In this document: positions 32,678 through 52,284 of the stretch, piece after piece
How the letters are laid out: each line of letters starts with the position of its first letter
Numbering within the stretch: the first letter of the stretch is position 1
DNA from: a virus
Strand: one strand, 5' to 3'
Virus record (IMG/VR): IMGVR_UViG_3300032282_002699
Location: 26,323-90,322 of that record
DNA: 64,000 nt
The notes under the pieces: model-generated
Seen by the model: only the letters and a program-made list of their open reading frames with translations
Databases searched by the model: none
What the model was told of the DNA's origin: nothing
Position numbers and translations under genes: made by a program

Positions 32678-34333
32678 ATGAAAATCAACCTGAGTGATGA
32701 AGATAAAAAACAGATAAAAGATTACCTAGATTCTAATAGTTATCTTCCTGATAAATACAGGTTCTTACTATTTGACAATGACCGAAAAACCGAGCTAGTG
32801 TGGGAGGGAAAGACAGATCAAGTTTGCAATGAAGTAGTCCCCTTCGTAAACTCTGAGACAATAGGCTCTCAAGGCAGTAACTGCGAAGGTAATTGGGTTA
32901 ATAAGTTGATATTGGGAGATAATAAGCTGATTCTGAGTTCGCTGAAGAATGGCCCCTTGCGGCAGCAAATCGAAGATCAGGGCGGCCTCAAGCTGATCTA
33001 TATCGATCCGCCCTTTGACGTGGGTGCAGATTTTTCGATGGATGTCGAGATTGGAGAGAATAAATTCACTAAGAAGCCCAACATCCTTGAGGAGATAGCA
33101 TACCGTGACACCTGGGGGAAGGGGGCCGATTCTTTCGTTTCCATGATTTTTGAGCGTCTTGTACTCATGAGGGACTTGCTTTCTGAGTCTGGAAGCATCT
33201 ATTTGCATTGCGACTACAGAGTGACGGCAATCGTGAGATGCGCAATGGACGAAATATTCGGGGCAAAGAATCACATTAACGAAGTCATCTGGTGCTACAC
33301 TCAAGGCGGTAGGCCTCAAGAGGGATACCCCAACAAGCACGACACCCTCCACTTCTACGCAAAGAATATAGACGCATTTACCCTCAACAAAGACAAGATC
33401 AAAATCGCATACGACCTGTATTCCGACAAGTCATCCTCGGCCTTCACTAAAACAGATCAGGATGGCCGCAAATATTACACGAAGGTCGTAAATGGTAAGG
33501 AATATAGATATTATCAGGATGAAGGGAAGAATCCCTACGACTGGTGGAGTGATATCCCAAAAGTCACAGGCCGAGCTGCTGTTGCCGTGGGTTCCGAGCT
33601 AGTTGGATATCCCACGCAGAAGCCAGAAAAACTTCTTAATCGCATCATCCTGTCTGCTTCTGAAGAGAACGATCTAGTCGCAGACTTTTTCTGTGGTTCT
33701 GGAACAATGGCGGCAGTCGCCGAAAAACAAGGGCGTAAATGGATCGCAGCCGATCTTGGCAAGTTTGCAATACATACAACCCGTAAGCGGATGATTGGTG
33801 TTCAAGGCCACCTTATAGACAATGGTAAAGACTACAGGTCTTTCGAGGTTATTGAAGCAAGGGGGTGCGGGAGGGATAAAAACCTAACCGAAATAGCTGA
33901 TGCTGAAATTGTTTGGGAGGGTGATAGGTTTAAGGTGAACCTGATAAACTTTAGAGTAAGCTCTAGCATCTCACTAGAAGATGCAAAAAACAACTTGTTG
34001 TCCGGTAGAAAGAAAACAGCCACAGTAGTAGTCGATAACAATCTAGTAAGAGTTAGTAGACTGCCGGATAATAGTTTCTTCCAAACACAGCTAACTCACC
34101 ACTGGTGTGACTGGATCGATTATTGGTCTGTTGACTTTGACTACGGTGGAAGAGAATTTAAAAGCCATTGGCAAAGTTTCAGGACCCGTAAGTGCAGGAC
34201 TTTATGCTTAAGCTCTTGCGACTACCAACCTAATGGAACGACATCCATCGTGGCAGTAAAAGTTATTGACGTATTTTGTAACGAGGTCTCTCTAACTATC
34301 CCTCTGACCTTGTATAATGGTGACTTCTTATGA
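32678..34333 (+). CDS. Beta-class adenine DNA methyltransferase (type III Mod-like), orphan
   Basis: LIYIDPPF, AYRDTW, YPTQKPEKLL, DFFCGSG; C-terminal WIDYWSVDFDY...WQSFRT...VKVIDVF. Confidence 0.9.
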   Translation: MKINLSDEDKKQIKDYLDSNSYLPDKYRFLLFDNDRKTELVWEGKTDQVCNEVVPFVNSETIGSQGSNCEGNWVNKLILGDNKLILSSLKNGPLRQQIEDQGGLKLIYIDPPFDVGADFSMDVEIGENKFTKKPNILEEIAYRDTWGKGADSFVSMIFERLVLMRDLLSESGSIYLHCDYRVTAIVRCAMDEIFGAKNHINEVIWCYTQGGRPQEGYPNKHDTLHFYAKNIDAFTLNKDKIKIAYDLYSDKSSSAFTKTDQDGRKYYTKVVNGKEYRYYQDEGKNPYDWWSDIPKVTGRAAVAVGSELVGYPTQKPEKLLNRIILSASEENDLVADFFCGSGTMAAVAEKQGRKWIAADLGKFAIHTTRKRMIGVQGHLIDNGKDYRSFEVIEARGCGRDKNLTEIADAEIVWEGDRFKVNLINFRVSSSISLEDAKNNLLSGRKKTATVVVDNNLVRVSRLPDNSFFQTQLTHHWCDWIDYWSVDFDYGGREFKSHWQSFRTRKCRTLCLSSCDYQPNGTTSIVAVKVIDVFCNEVSLTIPLTLYNGDFL

Positions 34334-46519: not shown

Positions 46520-46828
46520 ATGGGATGGCGAATCGTAAAGCAGCCTAATGGCCTTCTGGCAAGGTTCTCAGATGTTGTGGACCACTTCACCCACCTGGAC
46601 TTCAGGGAGGATGAGGCTGTAGAGCTTTGCATGGGGTATGGCTGCTCTATGCACGAGGCTCAAGCCAAAGTGGATGCCGGGGTTCGGGACTTTAAGCCCT
46701 GGACGACCACTCCCGGCAACGGACTAGAGAGGTGGGATCACTGCCTAGAGGCTGTGGGGAGGGTGCATGGGCAGGATGAGGTTTCCTCATTGCTGAGGGG
46801 GTTGACGCCCCAGGAAAAAGGTGTATAA
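46520..46828 (+). CDS. hypothetical protein
   Basis: SD GGAGG; IVKQPNGLLARFS.VVD. Confidence 0.6.
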   Translation: MGWRIVKQPNGLLARFSDVVDHFTHLDFREDEAVELCMGYGCSMHEAQAKVDAGVRDFKPWTTTPGNGLERWDHCLEAVGRVHGQDEVSSLLRGLTPQEKGV

Positions 46829-46835
46829 TGTGAGC

Positions 46836-46946
46836 ATGACACCTGAAAAGAGGCCGTTCATTGAGCCATTCAGCTTCATTACTGGTTTCCTAATGGCTCT
46901 GCTCACAGTCGCAATAGTTGTCCATCGCATTGCCCCCTTGCTTTAA
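46836..46946 (+). CDS. leaderless small membrane protein (36 aa)
   Basis: TTGACG-N16-TATAAT with the ATG 6 nt downstream; one TM helix. Confidence 0.45.
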   Translation: MTPEKRPFIEPFSFITGFLMALLTVAIVVHRIAPLL

Positions 46947-47250
46947 TGGAGGTTAAAGATGTTTTCTGAACCGCAAGCCAAAACAAAAACCAGGGCCGTT
47001 TATGAGGCAATGGATCCTCTAATGGATGGCCTTACGATCATGGATGGCCGTGGTGACTTGATGTACCCCGTTGTGCTATGGGTAAAGGCTCTGAACCATA
47101 ATGGGTGGAACCGATGCAGCCCGATCGTTGAACTGAAGGTTGCTCGTCGGTGGGCTAAAGCGTGGAGTAAAACCATGACCGTGGCGATTACGCCTGCCAG
47201 CCGAATCTCCAAGACCATCCAGTTGCCCCGCTACTAGGCCCCGTTGTAGG

Positions 47251-47321
47251 TTGACGTTTACCCAGGGAAGGCAGTATAATTAGGGGGTAAGCGGCTGAGC
47301 CGCACTGCCTTAAGACCGATG
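47251..47321 (+). promoter_or_regulatory. Promoter-hairpin leader element copy 10
   Basis: TTGACG-N18-TATAAT TAGGGGGTAA GCGGC-TGA-GCCGC ACTGC ... ATG. Confidence 0.85.
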
Positions 47322-47504
47322 ACGCCCGTAGAAGAAGCTTACCTGTCCCAGCACAATGAGGTTATGGGGTTGATGAAGGCCCTCCAGGATCGCATGGTTG
47401 ACATGCCAGCCCCTGACGGTGATACCCCGATCAACTGGGGCCACGTGGGTACCGTTGCGGAGGTTCGCAACAAGCTGGAGATGGTTCTGGAGTTTCTCGG
47501 GTAG
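47319..47504 (+). CDS. hypothetical protein (INWGHVG family)
   Basis: Follows leader copy 10. Confidence 0.65.
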   Translation: MTPVEEAYLSQHNEVMGLMKALQDRMVDMPAPDGDTPINWGHVGTVAEVRNKLEMVLEFLG

Positions 47505-47545
47505 ACACGGGGGTAAATACCCTAAAGTATTAAGAACAGGTGTAA

Positions 47546-48283
47546 ATGAAAGATTGTTGTATAGCACTGCCTGAGACAGGTATTTGTGACATTGACTGGA
47601 GCAAGGTGTTAAAGTCGATGAAACCTGGATCACACATTGTTGCACTTTGTCCCATTCTTGAGCACCACCGTATAACTCAAAGGGTTGAGGATGCTGGGTT
47701 TGAGATCAGGGACTCGGTGCTGTTCTTGGGGAAACCGAGGCTAATCGTGACATTGGCCAGGGTGCCTTTGGATGGGACGGTTGCGGAGAATGTGCTTAGG
47801 TACGGGGTAGGGGCGATAAATATAGATGGGTGCAGAGTGAGCTTCGACTCAAACGATGACCCAAGAATAGGCAAAAACTATCACCACAACGCAGCATCTG
47901 ATTACAATCCTGGGGTAAGAAAGAACAATAAAGATGGTAACCCACTGGAACTTTACAAGGGAAACGGGAGATGGCCCGCAAACCTAATCCACGACGGTGG
48001 CCCAGAAGTGCTGAGGAACTTCCCAGAGGCAGGGAATGGGTGGAAGAAGAACTATGGTCAGGATGACTATTTAGGCAAGCAGTATGGGGGAGGTTGTTTC
48101 GGCGGGGGTGGATACATCGGGAACTCCACCTATTGTGATCATGGATCTGCTGCACGGTTTTTCTACTCAGTCCAGGGGGATGATAAGGTCAAAGGGTTGA
48201 TCGACTACCTGGTCAAGATGATAAACCCCCCTGGTGGTGAGGTATTGTTCCTAGGTTCGGTGGGAGATTATGAACATCAGTAA
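47546..48283 (+). CDS. Catalytically inactive beta-class MTase paralogue 1
   Basis: KPGSH..HHR..EDAGFEIRD, GTVAENVL..GAINIDGCRV, GRWPAN, GSAARFFY; lacks DPPY and DPFxGSG. Confidence 0.75.
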   Translation: MKDCCIALPETGICDIDWSKVLKSMKPGSHIVALCPILEHHRITQRVEDAGFEIRDSVLFLGKPRLIVTLARVPLDGTVAENVLRYGVGAINIDGCRVSFDSNDDPRIGKNYHHNAASDYNPGVRKNNKDGNPLELYKGNGRWPANLIHDGGPEVLRNFPEAGNGWKKNYGQDDYLGKQYGGGCFGGGGYIGNSTYCDHGSAARFFYSVQGDDKVKGLIDYLVKMINPPGGEVLFLGSVGDYEHQ

Positions 48284-49046
48284 AGTAGACTCTTGTATCG
48301 CTTACTTTAATGGCTCCAATAGTTCAAATTGGAGCACGGTGGCAAGTAGGTTAAAGCCTGGTTCACACATTGCTGCCCTGTGCCCGGTATTGGAGCACCA
48401 CCGTATAACTCAAGGTATTGAGGATGTAGGGTTTGAGATTAGAGATTGTATCATGTTTTTGGGAAACCCTAAGCTAATGATAACTTTAGCCAGATTACCT
48501 TTAGAGGCGTCTGTGGCTCAGAACGTATTAAGATACGGAACGGGGGCAATAAGCATAGGTAGTTGCAGAGTACCTGTCGATGCTAAAGCCGATGCTAGTC
48601 AGTTGAGGACTATAAACAGGAATGTGAGGGATAAGGGGGACGGGTGGGGGTTATCCACCTTGGAAAATACCCGACCTCAGGTATTAAAGGAGGAGGGGAG
48701 GTGGCCAACTAATGTTATCATCCAAGACGATGAGGCCATAAGGGCAAAGTTTCCCTTTAGCAAGTCTTGCAACTCCCCCTCATCAGCAAAACCGGAAAGC
48801 AAGTATAGGCCGGGACAAGGTAACTATCAGCCACAGGGAAGGATTTATCCAGGGGATTCCGGATCAGCCGCCCGGTTCTTCCACACTGTAACCGAAGATA
48901 ACAGATTACTGGAACTAATGAGCTACATGTGCAAACTTTGCACCCCACCTCAGGGCAAAGCCCTGGTTGTCGGTTTGGGTAACGATGCTATAATAGGGTT
49001 GGAAAGCCTTGGGTTTAACGTCTTTCAATACAGTAGCAATGAGTAA
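48270..49046 (+). CDS. Catalytically inactive beta-class MTase paralogue 2
   Basis: Same blocks as paralogue 1 with different variable loops; no catalytic or SAM motifs. Confidence 0.75.
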   Translation: MNISKVDSCIAYFNGSNSSNWSTVASRLKPGSHIAALCPVLEHHRITQGIEDVGFEIRDCIMFLGNPKLMITLARLPLEASVAQNVLRYGTGAISIGSCRVPVDAKADASQLRTINRNVRDKGDGWGLSTLENTRPQVLKEEGRWPTNVIIQDDEAIRAKFPFSKSCNSPSSAKPESKYRPGQGNYQPQGRIYPGDSGSAARFFHTVTEDNRLLELMSYMCKLCTPPQGKALVVGLGNDAIIGLESLGFNVFQYSSNE

Positions 49047-49796
49047 ATACGATAGTTGCGTCTATTTAAGTAGTGATGAGGTTGTAGACTGGGGTAGGGT
49101 GTTTGGGTCGATGAAGCTCGGAGCCCACACCGTAGCAATTTGCCCGGTATTGGAACATCACCGCATAACACAGAAGGTCGAGGATGCAGGGTTTGAAATC
49201 AGAGACTGTGTATTGTCTCTAGGCAACCCTTGCTACATGGTTACATTGGGGAGAGTCCCTATAAAGGGAACAGTAGCGCAAAATGTGCTAAAGCACGGTG
49301 TCGGGGCATTGAACATTGACGAGTGTAGGATTGTAGCCACAGAGGACTTATCCCAGATTAAAGCGTTTGGCTCTATGCCTGAGAATAAGACAAATGACAA
49401 AGGTTTTACAGGCCTTGGATGGAAGACCGGCAGTCCATTTTAGATAAACAGAACGCTGCGATTGAGCGGATGAAGTCTATGGGTAGGTGGCCCGCCAATA
49501 CTATCCTTTCTAGTTGCGCTGGAGTTGTGGAGGGATTCCCAGACACAGGCATCAGTAGAGGTGGAAATTCTCTTCAAATAAACTCGGGGTCAGGGAAGTA
49601 TAACTGGAACGCAGGCGATAAAAGGGACAGCCCAAACAAAGTTGACCCAGGGTACGGTAATTCAGGCAGTGCAGCCCGTTACTTCTATAACATCACCGAA
49701 GACAACAAGTTGCAAGGTTTGGTCGCATACCTACACAAGCTCATCACTCCACCAGGTGGAACCACCCTCTTCATCCCCGACCCCTTCCCCCAATGA
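49039..49796 (+). pseudogene. Inactive MTase paralogue 3, split by a -1 frameshift
   Basis: ORFs 49039-49443 and 49419-49796 join if one T is added to the T4 run at 49404-49407 (...KGFYRPWMEDR...). Confidence 0.7.
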
Positions 49797-50036
49797 GCAT
49801 CTTTACAGTGTATGTGATGGGGGCATTACTAACCACATACCTGCCCTTTGTCATCTTGCCCGAAGAAGAACGGATCTACGATCCAGTCATCTATGCCCTT
49901 TTTGGGTTGCTGTGGCCATTCACCATACCTTGTACTGTCCTGCTAATACTATTCCCCAACCTTTAAGTAATAGGTTATCACCATACCCGTAAAGGATTAC
50001 TTTACCCCCCAAACCCAAACAATCACCACACAGAAA

Positions 50037-51572
50037 ATGGAAATGGAAACAGCGACTATGAATAACCAAACCTCGGTCTTAATGCTTGGGAACTGCCTAG
50101 ACCGCCTCAAGGAAATGGACGACAATAGCATTGATGCTATCTGTACTGACCCGCCATACGGGTTCGGTGGGGGTAAGACGACTGGATTTATGGGTAAAGA
50201 GTGGGATCGTGATGTCCCTTCTGTTGCAATTTGGCAGGAGTGTCTCAGAGTGCTGAAACCCGGTGGAAGCTTGCTGGCTTTCGCAGGCACTCGCACTCAG
50301 CATCGCATGGCTATCAACATTGAAGATGCGGGCTTTGTCCTAAAGGACATTGTATCTTGGGTGTACGGTTGCCTAAGCGAAGATACCCTTGCAATAACCC
50401 CTGAAGGCCCCAAATCCTACAAAGACCTCAAGGTCGGGGATGCTGTTATGGGGTACAACATTGAGACGTGGTTGGCCCAGAAAGTAGAAATTCAGGAGAT
50501 TGTGGAATATGATTATGATGAAGATGCCTATTTGATTGAAGGCATTGACGGCACTCAGCTCGTATCCAGAAATCACAGAGTTATTTGCCTCAGGAATGAT
50601 AAACTGTCGTATGTAATGGCTGAGTTTCTCAATGAGGAGGAAAAGATTCCCTTTTATGCTTCAGAGGGATTACAAGTTATACAGGATGTTAAAATAAGTA
50701 GGGTTCCGTATAAGGGTAAGGTGTGGTGTCTCAGGGTGCCGACTGGGGCCTTTGTTGCTATACGGGGTGGGGTTGCCTTCCCCACTGGAAATAGTGGGTT
50801 CCCTAAGTCTCTCAATGTTTCTAAGGCTATTGATAAAATGAAAGGGGCTGAGAGGAAGGTGATAGGGATGAAGCCTGGGACTTATGCAGACGTACGAGGA
50901 GCTAATGGTGTAGATGCTCAGAATAGTAGTGAAAAGCCCAGGTTGCAAATCCCTATCACAGAAGCCGGTTCAGATGAAGCTAAGAGGTGGGAGGGGTTTG
51001 GCACTGCCTTGAAACCGAGCCATGAGCCAATCACCTGGGCGATTAAACCGCCCCTGACCCCCTCAGAAACGGAAACTGATGGGATGCCCGTATTTAAGTA
51101 TTGCGCAAAAGCTGCCAAGAAAGACCGTAATTCAGGGTTATCTAACTACGTTGTTTTCCGTTTCCCAGTTGCCAATTTGCCAGCCAACCTTAGTGAGCTA
51201 AACAATCTGACCGAGGACGATAACGCAAGGTGGGTTATTGACGACAAAAAGGAAAATGTCATGGTTATCTGCCCTAAAGACAACCTTGATTCACTTCTGG
51301 GTAACTTGGGTGATGGAACTAAGCCGGGGGGAATTGACGATCTGACAAAATGGGAACCTTTGACCAACCAACATGCTACGGTCAAACCCATCGAACTAAT
51401 GCGGTGGTTATGCAAACTTGCCACTCCCGAAGGTGGAACAATTTTGGACCCATTCATGGGAAGTGGCTCCACTGGTGCTGCTGCTTTGCAAGAAGGGTTC
51501 AGTTTTATTGGCATCGAGATGGAGCCATCATACCTGGAGATTGCCAAGTTGCGCATTTCCCCCTTGGGCTAG
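50037..51572 (+). CDS. Beta-class N4/N6 DNA methyltransferase containing a mini-intein
   Basis: TDPPY, RVLKPGG, YG|SGFPKS, GTALKP, HATVKP, DPFMGSGSTG. Confidence 0.9.
   Translation: MEMETATMNNQTSVLMLGNCLDRLKEMDDNSIDAICTDPPYGFGGGKTTGFMGKEWDRDVPSVAIWQECLRVLKPGGSLLAFAGTRTQHRMAINIEDAGFVLKDIVSWVYGCLSEDTLAITPEGPKSYKDLKVGDAVMGYNIETWLAQKVEIQEIVEYDYDEDAYLIEGIDGTQLVSRNHRVICLRNDKLSYVMAEFLNEEEKIPFYASEGLQVIQDVKISRVPYKGKVWCLRVPTGAFVAIRGGVAFPTGNSGFPKSLNVSKAIDKMKGAERKVIGMKPGTYADVRGANGVDAQNSSEKPRLQIPITEAGSDEAKRWEGFGTALKPSHEPITWAIKPPLTPSETETDGMPVFKYCAKAAKKDRNSGLSNYVVFRFPVANLPANLSELNNLTEDDNARWVIDDKKENVMVICPKDNLDSLLGNLGDGTKPGGIDDLTKWEPLTNQHATVKPIELMRWLCKLATPEGGTILDPFMGSGSTGAAALQEGFSFIGIEMEPSYLEIAKLRISPLG
50370..50792 (+). 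mobile_element. Mini-intein (141 aa, no endonuclease)
   Basis: Starts CLSEDT, block B VSRNHRV, block F/G YKGKVWCLRVPTGAFVA...TGN followed by Ser; excision restores WVYG-SGFPKS. Confidence 0.88.
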
Positions 51573-51986
51573 TGAGTTACAGTACCCAAGATGGGTATAA
51601 AGCGAGTTACCACCCTAACCTACAATGAAAATGGGAACCATCACTAAAAATCAACGCCAAGCCACTATCCGCCAACAGGTAAATGTTGGACCTAAGATTA
51701 GCCAAGTCTCACCCCTCTCATACTGGATCGGTCAAACCATCCTGACACCTGAAGGGGTACTAGGGGCCTTTGAGCTTTCCTATCAGCAATGCCTGGACGG
51801 CATGGGTGAGTCCCTTGAACAATGGACAGGACTAACAAGCGATCAAATCAGACTCCTCATCGATCCTGAGACAAGGTACGAAACGGCGGCGGAACTCGTT
51901 GCGGCCAAGCTGATCCATGCTCGTTGACCAGCTCTGGTTTACGAACTTGTTTTGTGGGTACCCTGCCACTGCCCCGCATACTATGC

Positions 51987-52035
51987 TATAATATAGGAGT
52001 CAGCGGGCGAGGCCCGCACCGCCTTGAGACCGATG
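51987..52035 (+). promoter_or_regulatory. Promoter-hairpin leader element copy 11
   Basis: TATAAT ATAGGAGTCA GCGGGC-GAG-GCCCGC ACCGC ... ATG 52033. Confidence 0.85.
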
Positions 52036-52284
52036 ACTGCCGTTGCCGAGACCTACACTGTCGTCTGCACCTCCTGGGAAGACATGGAGCACCTTCCCCC
52101 GGACATGATCACTGCCTACAGCGTTCGCTTTGGGGAGGGGTTCAAGACCCGTGAGGAAGCGGATGCGTTCGCCAATCGCCTGAACAACCGGGATGGTAAC
52201 CAGGAGTGGCACCACTATTCCCTCACTGCTACGGAAGCAAAATCTGTCTTTGCCGAAAGCGGCACCTTTCAACTCCAGTCCTGA
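52033..52284 (+). CDS. hypothetical protein
   Basis: Follows leader copy 11. Confidence 0.6.
   Translation: MTAVAETYTVVCTSWEDMEHLPPDMITAYSVRFGEGFKTREEADAFANRLNNRDGNQEWHHYSLTATEAKSVFAESGTFQLQS

Follow-up and report, generated by a model that had tools for sequence, protein, structure and literature searches.

A phage locus with one block-less adenine methyltransferase and tandem inactive paralogs: a probable split enzyme with interchangeable specificity subunits

According to the review by Woodcock et al. (PMC7544214), DNA methyltransferases (MTases) of class beta have the motif order IV-TRD-I, and their target recognition domain (TRD) points away from its own catalytic domain; dimers of this class therefore divide the labor. 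In EcoP15I Mod2 and CcrM, recognition takes place in one subunit and methylation is carried out by the other, and in MTA1-MTA9 and METTL3-METTL14, an active subunit is joined by a partner with an eroded motif IV (EPPL, NALW) that aids substrate binding (PMC7544214). Here, we describe a locus in a 64,000-nucleotide (nt) stretch of viral DNA (the window; bases 26323 to 90322 of IMG/VR virus record IMGVR_UViG_3300032282_002699) at which the two tasks appear to have been parted between genes. Three tandem open reading frames (ORFs), par1 to par3, keep an MTase scaffold and a TRD-like block that holds two variable loops, and one MTase downstream of them has all catalytic motifs and no such block. 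On the strength of sequence comparisons and predicted structures, we think it probable that the locus encodes a heterodimeric, division-of-labor class beta N6-adenine MTase with interchangeable specificity subunits derived from dead paralogs.

The principles behind such an arrangement are known: division-of-labor dimers, inactive partner paralogs, and, in Type I systems, separate specificity subunits with two TRDs. Like METTL3-METTL14 and MTA1-MTA9 (AMT1-AMT7), the locus sets an active subunit beside a paralog with eroded catalytic motifs, as judged here by sequence. Those systems, however, are eukaryotic, have one fixed partner with a near-complete fold, and leave DNA or RNA binding partly to other domains or p1/p2, whereas the present system is phage encoded, has several tandem partners with a clean loss of four motif regions, and has an active subunit without a TRD. 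EcoP15I Mod2 and CcrM are homodimers of complete subunits; here, in contrast, the redundant halves have apparently been deleted from separate genes. In Type I restriction-modification, HsdS is a separate noncatalytic chain with two variable regions in a conserved frame, which are shuffled by recombination, and alternative S genes serve one M subunit. The locus is like HsdS in carrying two swappable variable regions on a separate subunit, a likeness in working mode and not in family: there is no homology (no Pfam Methylase_S match), HsdS is not a dead MTase, and its M subunits are gamma class. The C5-cytosine MTases of Bacillus phages SPR, phi3T, and rho11s carry several TRDs that provide several specificities and evasion of host restriction. 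Their TRDs lie in series in one C5 MTase chain, whereas each module here is a separate dead amino-MTase paralog. Full-length phage MTases such as P0009 and P0012 (PF01555), which hold catalysis and block in one chain, share 46 to 50% identity with par1 over scaffold and block, have identical loop-2 types, and also resemble the catalytic subunit over its motifs. In full-text searches and in the portions of the review (PMC7544214) and of a study of 224 jumbo phages (PMC7824862) available to us, we found no description of a phage or bacterial class beta MTase with dead-paralog or block-only specificity subunits. The combination of a TRD-stripped viral orphan amino-MTase with interchangeable arrays of pseudo-MTase readers and a reduced mini form appears to be new.

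The features of the locus, in window coordinates, are as follows.
47546 to 48283, plus strand: par1, dead MTase paralog with a TRD-like block, 245 amino acids (aa); its loop 2 is of the NGWKKNYG..GGGGY type, found too in active full-length MTases.
48270 to 49046, plus strand: par2, dead paralog, 258 aa; the copy used for structure and complex predictions.
49039 to 49443, plus strand: N-terminal piece of par3, comprising the scaffold and the start of the block; the frame is lost at a T4 run at 49404 to 49407.
49398/49419 to 49796, plus strand: C-terminal piece of par3, in the -1 frame relative to the N-terminal piece, with GRWPAN, loop 2, GSAARYF, and PPGG.
49793 to 49966, plus strand: small hydrophobic ORF between par3 and the MTase, 57 aa, of uncertain status.
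50037 to 51572, plus strand: precursor of the catalytic class beta MTase, 511 aa, with DPPY at 50148, TALKP at 51003, HATVKP at 51372, and DPFMGSGS at 51447 and without the TVA..GSAARFF block.
50370 to 50792, plus strand: mini-intein, 141 aa, inserted before the GFPKS motif (CLSEDT...PTGN, then the S of SGFPKS).
51042 to 51113, plus strand: junction at the position of the block in full-length relatives, IKPPLTPSETETDGMP-VFKYCAKA.
51141 to 51362, plus strand: clade-specific insert of about 74 aa between KKDRNSGL and HATVKP (SNYVVFRFP..WVIDDKKENVMVICPKDNL..WEPLT).

Comparison with intact enzymes confirmed, at the level of sequence, that the three upstream ORFs are paralogs of class beta N6-adenine MTases that have lost their catalytic motifs. 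In a search within the phage's own 90-kb record, par1 matched par2 with an E value of 4e-53 and the two par3 pieces with E values of 5e-38 and 6e-16, well outside the range of chance; identity among the three paralogs was 43 to 55%. Homology to the class beta core was clear (phmmer E value of 1e-55 to PF01555 proteins). Aligned with four intact full-length relatives (P0009, P0012, P0019, and P0021), the paralogs lacked the N-terminal helix including motif IV (DPPY), the GSGFPKS...GWGTALKPAxEPI segment, the KASxxDR...HPTVKP region, and motif I (DPFxGSG), and par1 and par3 also lacked everything after motif I. An earlier, sequence-only reading of the window had described ORFs 47546, 48270, and 49039 as keeping scaffold and block while losing DPPY, SGFPKS..TALKP, and DPFxGSG; the alignment bore this out loss by loss and added two that had been missed, HPTVKP and the N-terminal helix. 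The motif IV pattern (D/N/S)PP(Y/F/W) was missing from par1 and par2, the aligned site in the paralogs reading CIALPE, CIAYFNG, or CVYLSS. The motif I pattern FxGxG preceded by DP was likewise absent: par1 and par3 stop a few residues past PPGGxxLF, and par2 has VVGLGND at this site, which is not conserved among its relatives, and retains a degenerate strand-helix-strand after PPQG (VVGLGNDAIIGLESLGFNVFQY). What the paralogs keep is a framework of invariant residues, namely, KPGxH, HHR, EDxGFEIRD, TVAxNVL..GxGA..I..CR, GRWPxN, FP, GSAARFF, and a helix ending in PPGG. None of the four paralog pieces matched any Pfam family at an E value of ≤1 and hence none reached the PF01555 gathering threshold. 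The sole match in PHROGs was phrog_3008, "DNA methyltransferase" (E values of 1e-8 to 4e-7), covering the first part of the block, and a PDB sequence search with a profile of the dead family returned no match at an E value of ≤1. The block matched no solved structure.

The sequence-only reading had counted three tandem ORFs. Two of them, par1 and par2, lie where it had placed them; par3 is split at the T4 run into two frames. In the window, ...KGF and YRPWMED fall in different frames, the latter in the -1 frame, and the intact par3 ortholog P0015 reads KGFYRPWMED across the frameshift site. The Logan assembly of the probable source run, X1 (depth, 11.7), has T4 in this tract as well. A 151-nt contig in runs X3 and X4, which given their identical size may represent a single data set, aligns to 49339 to 49483 with one extra T behind 49403 and is otherwise identical; its frame is restored (depth, 3). 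Because this T5 allele with an intact frame exists beside T4, the break appears to be recent or polymorphic, and the difference could be either a recent mutation or a variable homopolymer. The stop and start codons of neighboring paralogs overlap by 14 nt (par1-par2) and 8 nt (par2-par3), which fits co-expression.

The downstream MTase shows the reverse pattern. Its protein (50037) has DPPY at residue 38, GFPKS at 254, TALKP at 323, HATVKP at 446, and DPFMGSGS at 471, with motifs IV and I intact, and it scored 103 bits against PF01555 (cutoff, 26.7). Between motif VIII and motif X, where the TRD is expected, it has a 16-residue linker instead of the block. Thus, the claim that this enzyme carries every catalytic motif and runs directly from IKPPLTPSETETDGMP to VFKYCAKA was upheld. 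Single-chain enzymes of this type had also been said to hold both parts as a rule, and we found block motifs in 107 of the 120 best homologs of the catalytic MTase, with 13 lacking them; among its nearest relatives in IMG/VR (≤45% identity), 75 of 86 classified ORFs were full length. The block-less state is thus rare and derived in a family whose members normally carry the block. Nine of the 13 block-less homologs, the closest block-less orthologs of the window's MTase, share its private insert of about 74 aa (pattern WVxDDK).

The sequence-only reading had referred to a "spliced" 50037 protein, and an intein of 141 residues is indeed present (residues 112 to 252; nt 50370 to 50792). It begins with Cys1, ends in Asn, and is followed by a +1 Ser nucleophile, and it is precisely absent from the 323-aa ortholog P0267, which reads VYG-SGFPKS; Pfam matches to Hint_2 and Intein_splicing were subthreshold (E values of 0.2 to 0.3). 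Of the 120 homologs, 69 show an intein-start pattern. Same-site inteins are found in many block-bearing and block-less relatives, for example, P0273, P0331, the MTase of locus L094, and the first gene of a cluster in phage LR756508.1 (see below). The 572-aa ortholog P0266 carries both an intein and an XRE-type helix-turn-helix (PF01381) inserted after GFPKS. In two other block-less orthologs, P0269 and P0274, the conserved IEDAGF reads IISAGF and motif I is intact; their activity is uncertain.

The dead paralogs belong to a large family. Among the 120 best par1 homologs, 28 have no Pfam domain and are 154 to 308 aa long; the remainder are PF01555 enzymes of up to 428 aa. When 1.84 billion cluster representatives were scanned with par2, 9,929 matched, and many of the best 150 are about 220 to 270 aa long and match end to end. 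By motif patterns, 65 of 262 fetched proteins have the dead form (motifs IV and I absent, block motifs present). We built a tree from 92 rows (45 dead proteins of 215 to 300 aa, 46 intein-free full-length proteins of 330 to 470 aa, and one eroded protein from locus L049), leaving out mini proteins, fragments, and intein-bearing rows. All 45 dead rows fell on one side of a single branch (SH-aLRT, 93) in a deep and diverse clade. No relative of the dead family was found in the 185,579 species genomes of GTDB. In IMG/VR scans with par1, a dead-family alignment, a mini-protein alignment, and the catalytic ortholog, the 80 loci retained per query held almost only full-length MTases, with block-only ORFs in L049 and L063 alone. 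One 308-aa protein on a 240,882-nt contig, P0048, looks like a C-terminal half of the block fused ahead of a complete dead paralog, that is, a partial tandem fusion.

Neutral evolution of the paralogs, and their absence from relatives, would have counted against the reading of the paralogs as specificity subunits; neither was seen. The ratio of nonsynonymous to synonymous substitution rates (dN/dS) between the window copies and six copies at locus L086 was 0.07 to 0.33 in the 22 of 45 listed pairs with computable dS (dS was saturated in the other 23). The best-behaved pair was the C-terminal piece of par3 and L086f (96 codons; dN, 0.093; dS, 1.31). These ratios indicate that the dead family is under purifying selection, the C-terminal piece of par3 included. 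In relatives, the dead family occurs in tandem arrays, and block-only genes stand beside block-less MTases. The L086 contig (4,771 nt, from a metagenome) carries six dead copies in tandem, plus the beginning of another, with no MTase in its 4.8 kb. Four dead proteins (P0002, P0003, P0015, and P0040) and the block-less P0266 each have a longest contig of 119,134 nt, and two more (P0006 and P0051) and the block-less P0274 each have one of 22,262 nt; their co-residence is suggested by equal size only.

Division of the enzyme has also taken a second, more reduced form. Block-only mini proteins of 139 to 208 aa consist of one strand plus the block (FHIVIAMKPxEGTFAENALKHGVAGxNIDxCRI...GRFPANVIHD..FP...GDSGSAARFF). 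At locus L110, two minis are followed 5 nt downstream by a block-less MTase; at L112 to L114, a mini is followed by a block-less MTase overlapping it by 4 nt and then by a second mini; at L094 and L095, one mini lies upstream of an intein-bearing block-less MTase, and two further minis lie within 9 kb. In the 484-kb phage LR756508.1 (locus L356; 283436 to 288760), four MTase-family genes stand in tandem: gene 1 is block-less (617 aa, with an intein; ARKKGDRVNPDLSKGSRFFY), genes 2 and 4 are full (459 and 386 aa), and gene 3 is dead, with a frame of 339 aa lacking DPPY, GFPKS..TALKP, and HPTVKP and with motif I eroded to DPFLSTGS. All four share a similar C-terminal tail (DPxN..T.K..S.I.H.FW), and the cluster looks like a tandem duplication followed by differential loss. 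LR745208.1 (485 kb) has only long block-bearing frames (516 to 557 aa) and no dead copy.

The 350 loci L006 to L355 hold 290 ORFs classed as full, 39 as block-less, and 29 as block-only. Twelve loci contain block-only ORFs; there, the accompanying MTase was block-less in six, a truncated catalytic fragment in one, and full in two, with none visible in three. Because the loci are partly redundant and amount to about seven independent groups, this linkage is to be taken as a tendency and not as a statistic. The split is not readily put down to a sequencing error within a single gene, an explanation that we rejected: the block-only genes lie upstream, whereas the block sits in the middle of the enzyme in full-length relatives, and every dead copy possesses its own scaffold.

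The block carries two loops, loop 1 between NIDxCR and GRWPxN and loop 2 between FP and GSAARFF. The sequence-only reading had called both entirely different in each paralog, and this agrees with our assignments. When the loops of 234 nonduplicate proteins were clustered at 50% identity, par1 had type 1 for both loops and par2 had type 24 (loop 1) and type 12 (loop 2); judged by eye, the par3 loops resemble those of P0015 (loop 1) and P0016 (loop 2). Among types with at least two members, 30 of 34 for loop 1 and 36 of 38 for loop 2 are found with more than one type of the other loop; the loop 2 of par2, for example, is seen with at least eight different loop-1 types. By these counts, the loops are shuffled as two independent modules. 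Nine loop-1 types and 13 loop-2 types are common to dead or mini proteins and catalytically intact enzymes, and the loop 2 of par1 is present in more than 10 active enzymes. Specificity determinants would be expected to show just this pattern, two independently exchangeable modules set into an invariant framework where the TRD lies, and we infer that the loops read DNA.

Structure predictions were informative for the framework. In an AlphaFold2 (AF2) model of par2, the core was confident and both loops had a predicted local distance difference test (pLDDT) score below 50 (mean for the model, 63.8); the variable loops of the full-length P0012 were likewise below 50, and the models therefore yield no structural hint on DNA reading. 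TRDs of class beta enzymes are disordered without DNA (PMC7544214). In Foldseek searches, the par2 model matched M.BceJIV, M1.HpyAVI, MTA1, METTL3-14 chains, MboIIA, CcrM, and RsrI (E values down to 1.4e-5; TM scores of 0.4 to 0.5), and among solved structures CcrM is closest in sequence to the full-length family (6pbd; E value of 3e-25).

We then predicted the complex that the sequence-only reading had proposed, with the intein-free ortholog P0267 (88% identical to the window protein) as the catalytic chain, par2 as its partner, and separate unpaired alignments. Three runs of the pair yielded ipSAE values of 0.87, 0.87, and 0.86, whereas none of three controls scored above 0.00. These scores pass a mark that 58 of 80 solved complexes attain, compared with 2 of 110 mismatched pairs. 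At least 87% of contacts were common to the runs, and the pLDDT of the partner was at least 72. In the predicted interface, the QHRMA helix (catalytic chain) and the HHRITQ helix (par2) pack against each other about a pseudo-twofold axis, and TALKP (P0267 residues 138 to 142; ALKPS) contacts RWPxN (par2 residues 145 to 149; WPTNV) with an expected error of 0.4 to 0.5 Å. Half of the invariant dead-family positions (20 of 40) fall within the 50-residue predicted interface (Fisher P = 1.4 × 10−6). None of the 78 loop residues and no residue of the private insert does, the absence of the loops from the confident interface being due in part to their low pLDDT. As a prediction, the model supports heterodimer binding, and, as TALKP and RWPxN each survive on one chain type, this predicted contact gives the argument from complementary deletions its strongest form.

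These data suggest the following mechanism. A full-length MTase would have been duplicated in tandem, and redundant halves would then have been deleted from separate genes, half of a homodimer being redundant for an asymmetric site. The spliced 50037 protein would provide SAM binding and catalysis, having lost the recognition block between motifs VIII and X, and the paralogs would have kept the recognition block along with that half of the Rossmann core through which class beta enzymes dimerize. The framework of the block (VAxNV, GRWPxN, FP, and SAARFF) would dock on the GFPKS..TALKP region of the catalytic subunit, leaving the two hypervariable loops free for DNA reading. One catalytic subunit, depending on its partners for recognition, would associate successively with par1, par2, or an intact par3, each partner conferring its own specificity. 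Several methylation specificities could thus be served by one active site, most plausibly shielding the phage genome from host restriction. Escape from host restriction is the usual role of phage orphan MTases. We give about even odds to a broader reading: large freshwater phages would have a plug-and-play adenine MTase, in which a TRD-less catalytic subunit is aimed by arrays of dead paralogs or by 140-aa minis, each with two recombining loops, and which has arisen repeatedly through tandem duplication of a full-length MTase and complementary loss.

Several observations weigh against this reading. In this genome, par3 is frameshifted, and two of three partners are intact. At L049 and L063 (L049:7908-10259; L063:2709-5060), an eroded paralog (314-aa frame; DPCY; DPFNHSR) that has lost GFPKS..TALKP is found immediately upstream of a complete MTase with its block in place, which shows that the deletions are not complementary everywhere; in the tree, this paralog groups among full-length enzymes, and its erosion thus took place independently within their clade. 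Locus L107 has block-only genes and no MTase within 20 kb. Its single mini (L107:9971-10429), compared with the minis at L112:9989-11995, equals the N terminus of mini 1 joined to the loops of mini 2; recombination between the minis has apparently removed the MTase together with portions of both. Two block-less orthologs from a lineage with dead paralogs (P0269 and P0274) have DGPY instead of DPPY, and the conserved 74-aa insert of the catalytic clade could be a private recognition element. The gene context covers few lineages of the dead family, and the role of the loops in DNA reading is argued from position and variability alone. As for the complex, the score is the model's own confidence, the modeled catalytic chain is the ortholog P0267 and not the intein-bearing window protein, and a single pairing was modeled; since class beta homodimers and the METTL3-14 and MTA1-MTA9 heterodimers have been solved, the pass may mirror likeness to known dimers. 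Taken together, the proposal that a catalytic subunit is served by dead, block-bearing paralogs gains from conservation, selection, recurrence, the loops, and the complex model, agrees with the published picture of class beta dimers (PMC7544214), and is weakened by the broken par3 and by the exception at L049/L063.

The same observations can be set against other explanations. The paralogs might heterodimerize but, like METTL14, serve only as a scaffold, whether structural, allosteric, or for general DNA binding, with specificity lying elsewhere (for example, in the 74-aa insert) or absent and the copies redundant or stage specific. A complex model that is silent on DNA, a conserved private insert in the catalytic clade, and loops that are unstructured in the models are all compatible with a scaffold. 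Nevertheless, we consider it unlikely: the loops are hypervariable in an invariant framework and are shuffled independently as two modules, identical loop types sit at the TRD position of active single-chain enzymes, and arrays of three to seven copies with all-different loops would be hard to account for. It is quite unlikely, too, that the paralogs act without the MTase as sequence-specific DNA binders that occlude restriction sites, regulate, or serve as decoys beside a self-sufficient MTase. The lone block-only genes of L107, the six L086 copies without an MTase within 4.8 kb, and a catalytic MTase that exceeds its Pfam threshold alone would fit; however, block-only genes repeatedly abut block-less MTases in independent lineages, the paralogs keep exactly the helix and strands of the predicted dimer interface, and the invariant RWPxN has its predicted contact, TALKP, on the other chain only.

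Class beta enzymes act as dimers (PMC7544214), and a dimerizing dead subunit could be dominant negative; the paralogs might then be poison subunits that pair with host class beta MTases or Type III Mod and disable or retarget host restriction-modification. This is very unlikely, given that the scaffold is most closely related to phage MTases from the neighboring gene's own family, that poisoning would not require linkage to a block-less phage MTase, and that no dead-family relative turned up among the species genomes searched. The least probable explanation, in our estimate, is that the paralogs are decaying duplicates or silent recombination cassettes without protein function. The frameshift in par3 and the resemblance of L107 to a recombination product of two mini genes are what such decay or copying would leave, but the low dN/dS, the intact frames in dozens of diverged members, and the invariant framework residues speak against it, and the active gene lacks a block that could receive a copied cassette.

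If the favored reading of a split enzyme with exchangeable readers is true, the locus lends direct evolutionary backing to the view that, in class beta amino-MTases, the TRD of one subunit serves the active site of the other. Under the broader reading, the system would amount to a natural deletion experiment in favor of the division-of-labor model and to the first METTL3-METTL14 counterpart in prokaryotes or viruses whose partners can be exchanged. Phages would have a cheap way to multiply methylation specificities, one active site with many readers, against diverse host restriction. The shuffling of the two-loop module could be read as a code from loop type to DNA half-site, an aid to predicting MTase specificity from sequence and to designing programmable adenine methyltransferases. 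A sizeable family of Pfam-invisible "hypothetical proteins" would, in addition, be MTase-derived pseudoenzymes.

Around the locus, a scan of 46800 to 52200 for promoters and terminators gave counts not above those of shuffled sequence (9 versus 6.2 ± 2.5 and 6 versus 5.5 ± 2.7, respectively) and was uninformative. No RNA data set was among the runs listed for this stretch. The 57-aa ORF at 49793 to 49966 has two hydrophobic stretches, overlaps the par3 stop codon (ATGA), and precedes the MTase; its status as a gene is uncertain. Elsewhere in the window, at 32678 to 34333, lies a second, unrelated class beta MTase (551 aa; DPPF ... FCGSG; phrog_67) that is like a Type III Mod subunit. A link between it and the locus was considered and rejected, as it is a different, Mod-like enzyme without the block.

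The 90-kb record has a CheckV completeness of 32%. The window encodes topoisomerase II, DNA polymerase, tail sheath, portal, and head protease, all on the plus strand, and these genes mark it as a piece of a large tailed phage genome. Related or near-identical DNA was found in sequencing runs labeled metagenome or freshwater metagenome.

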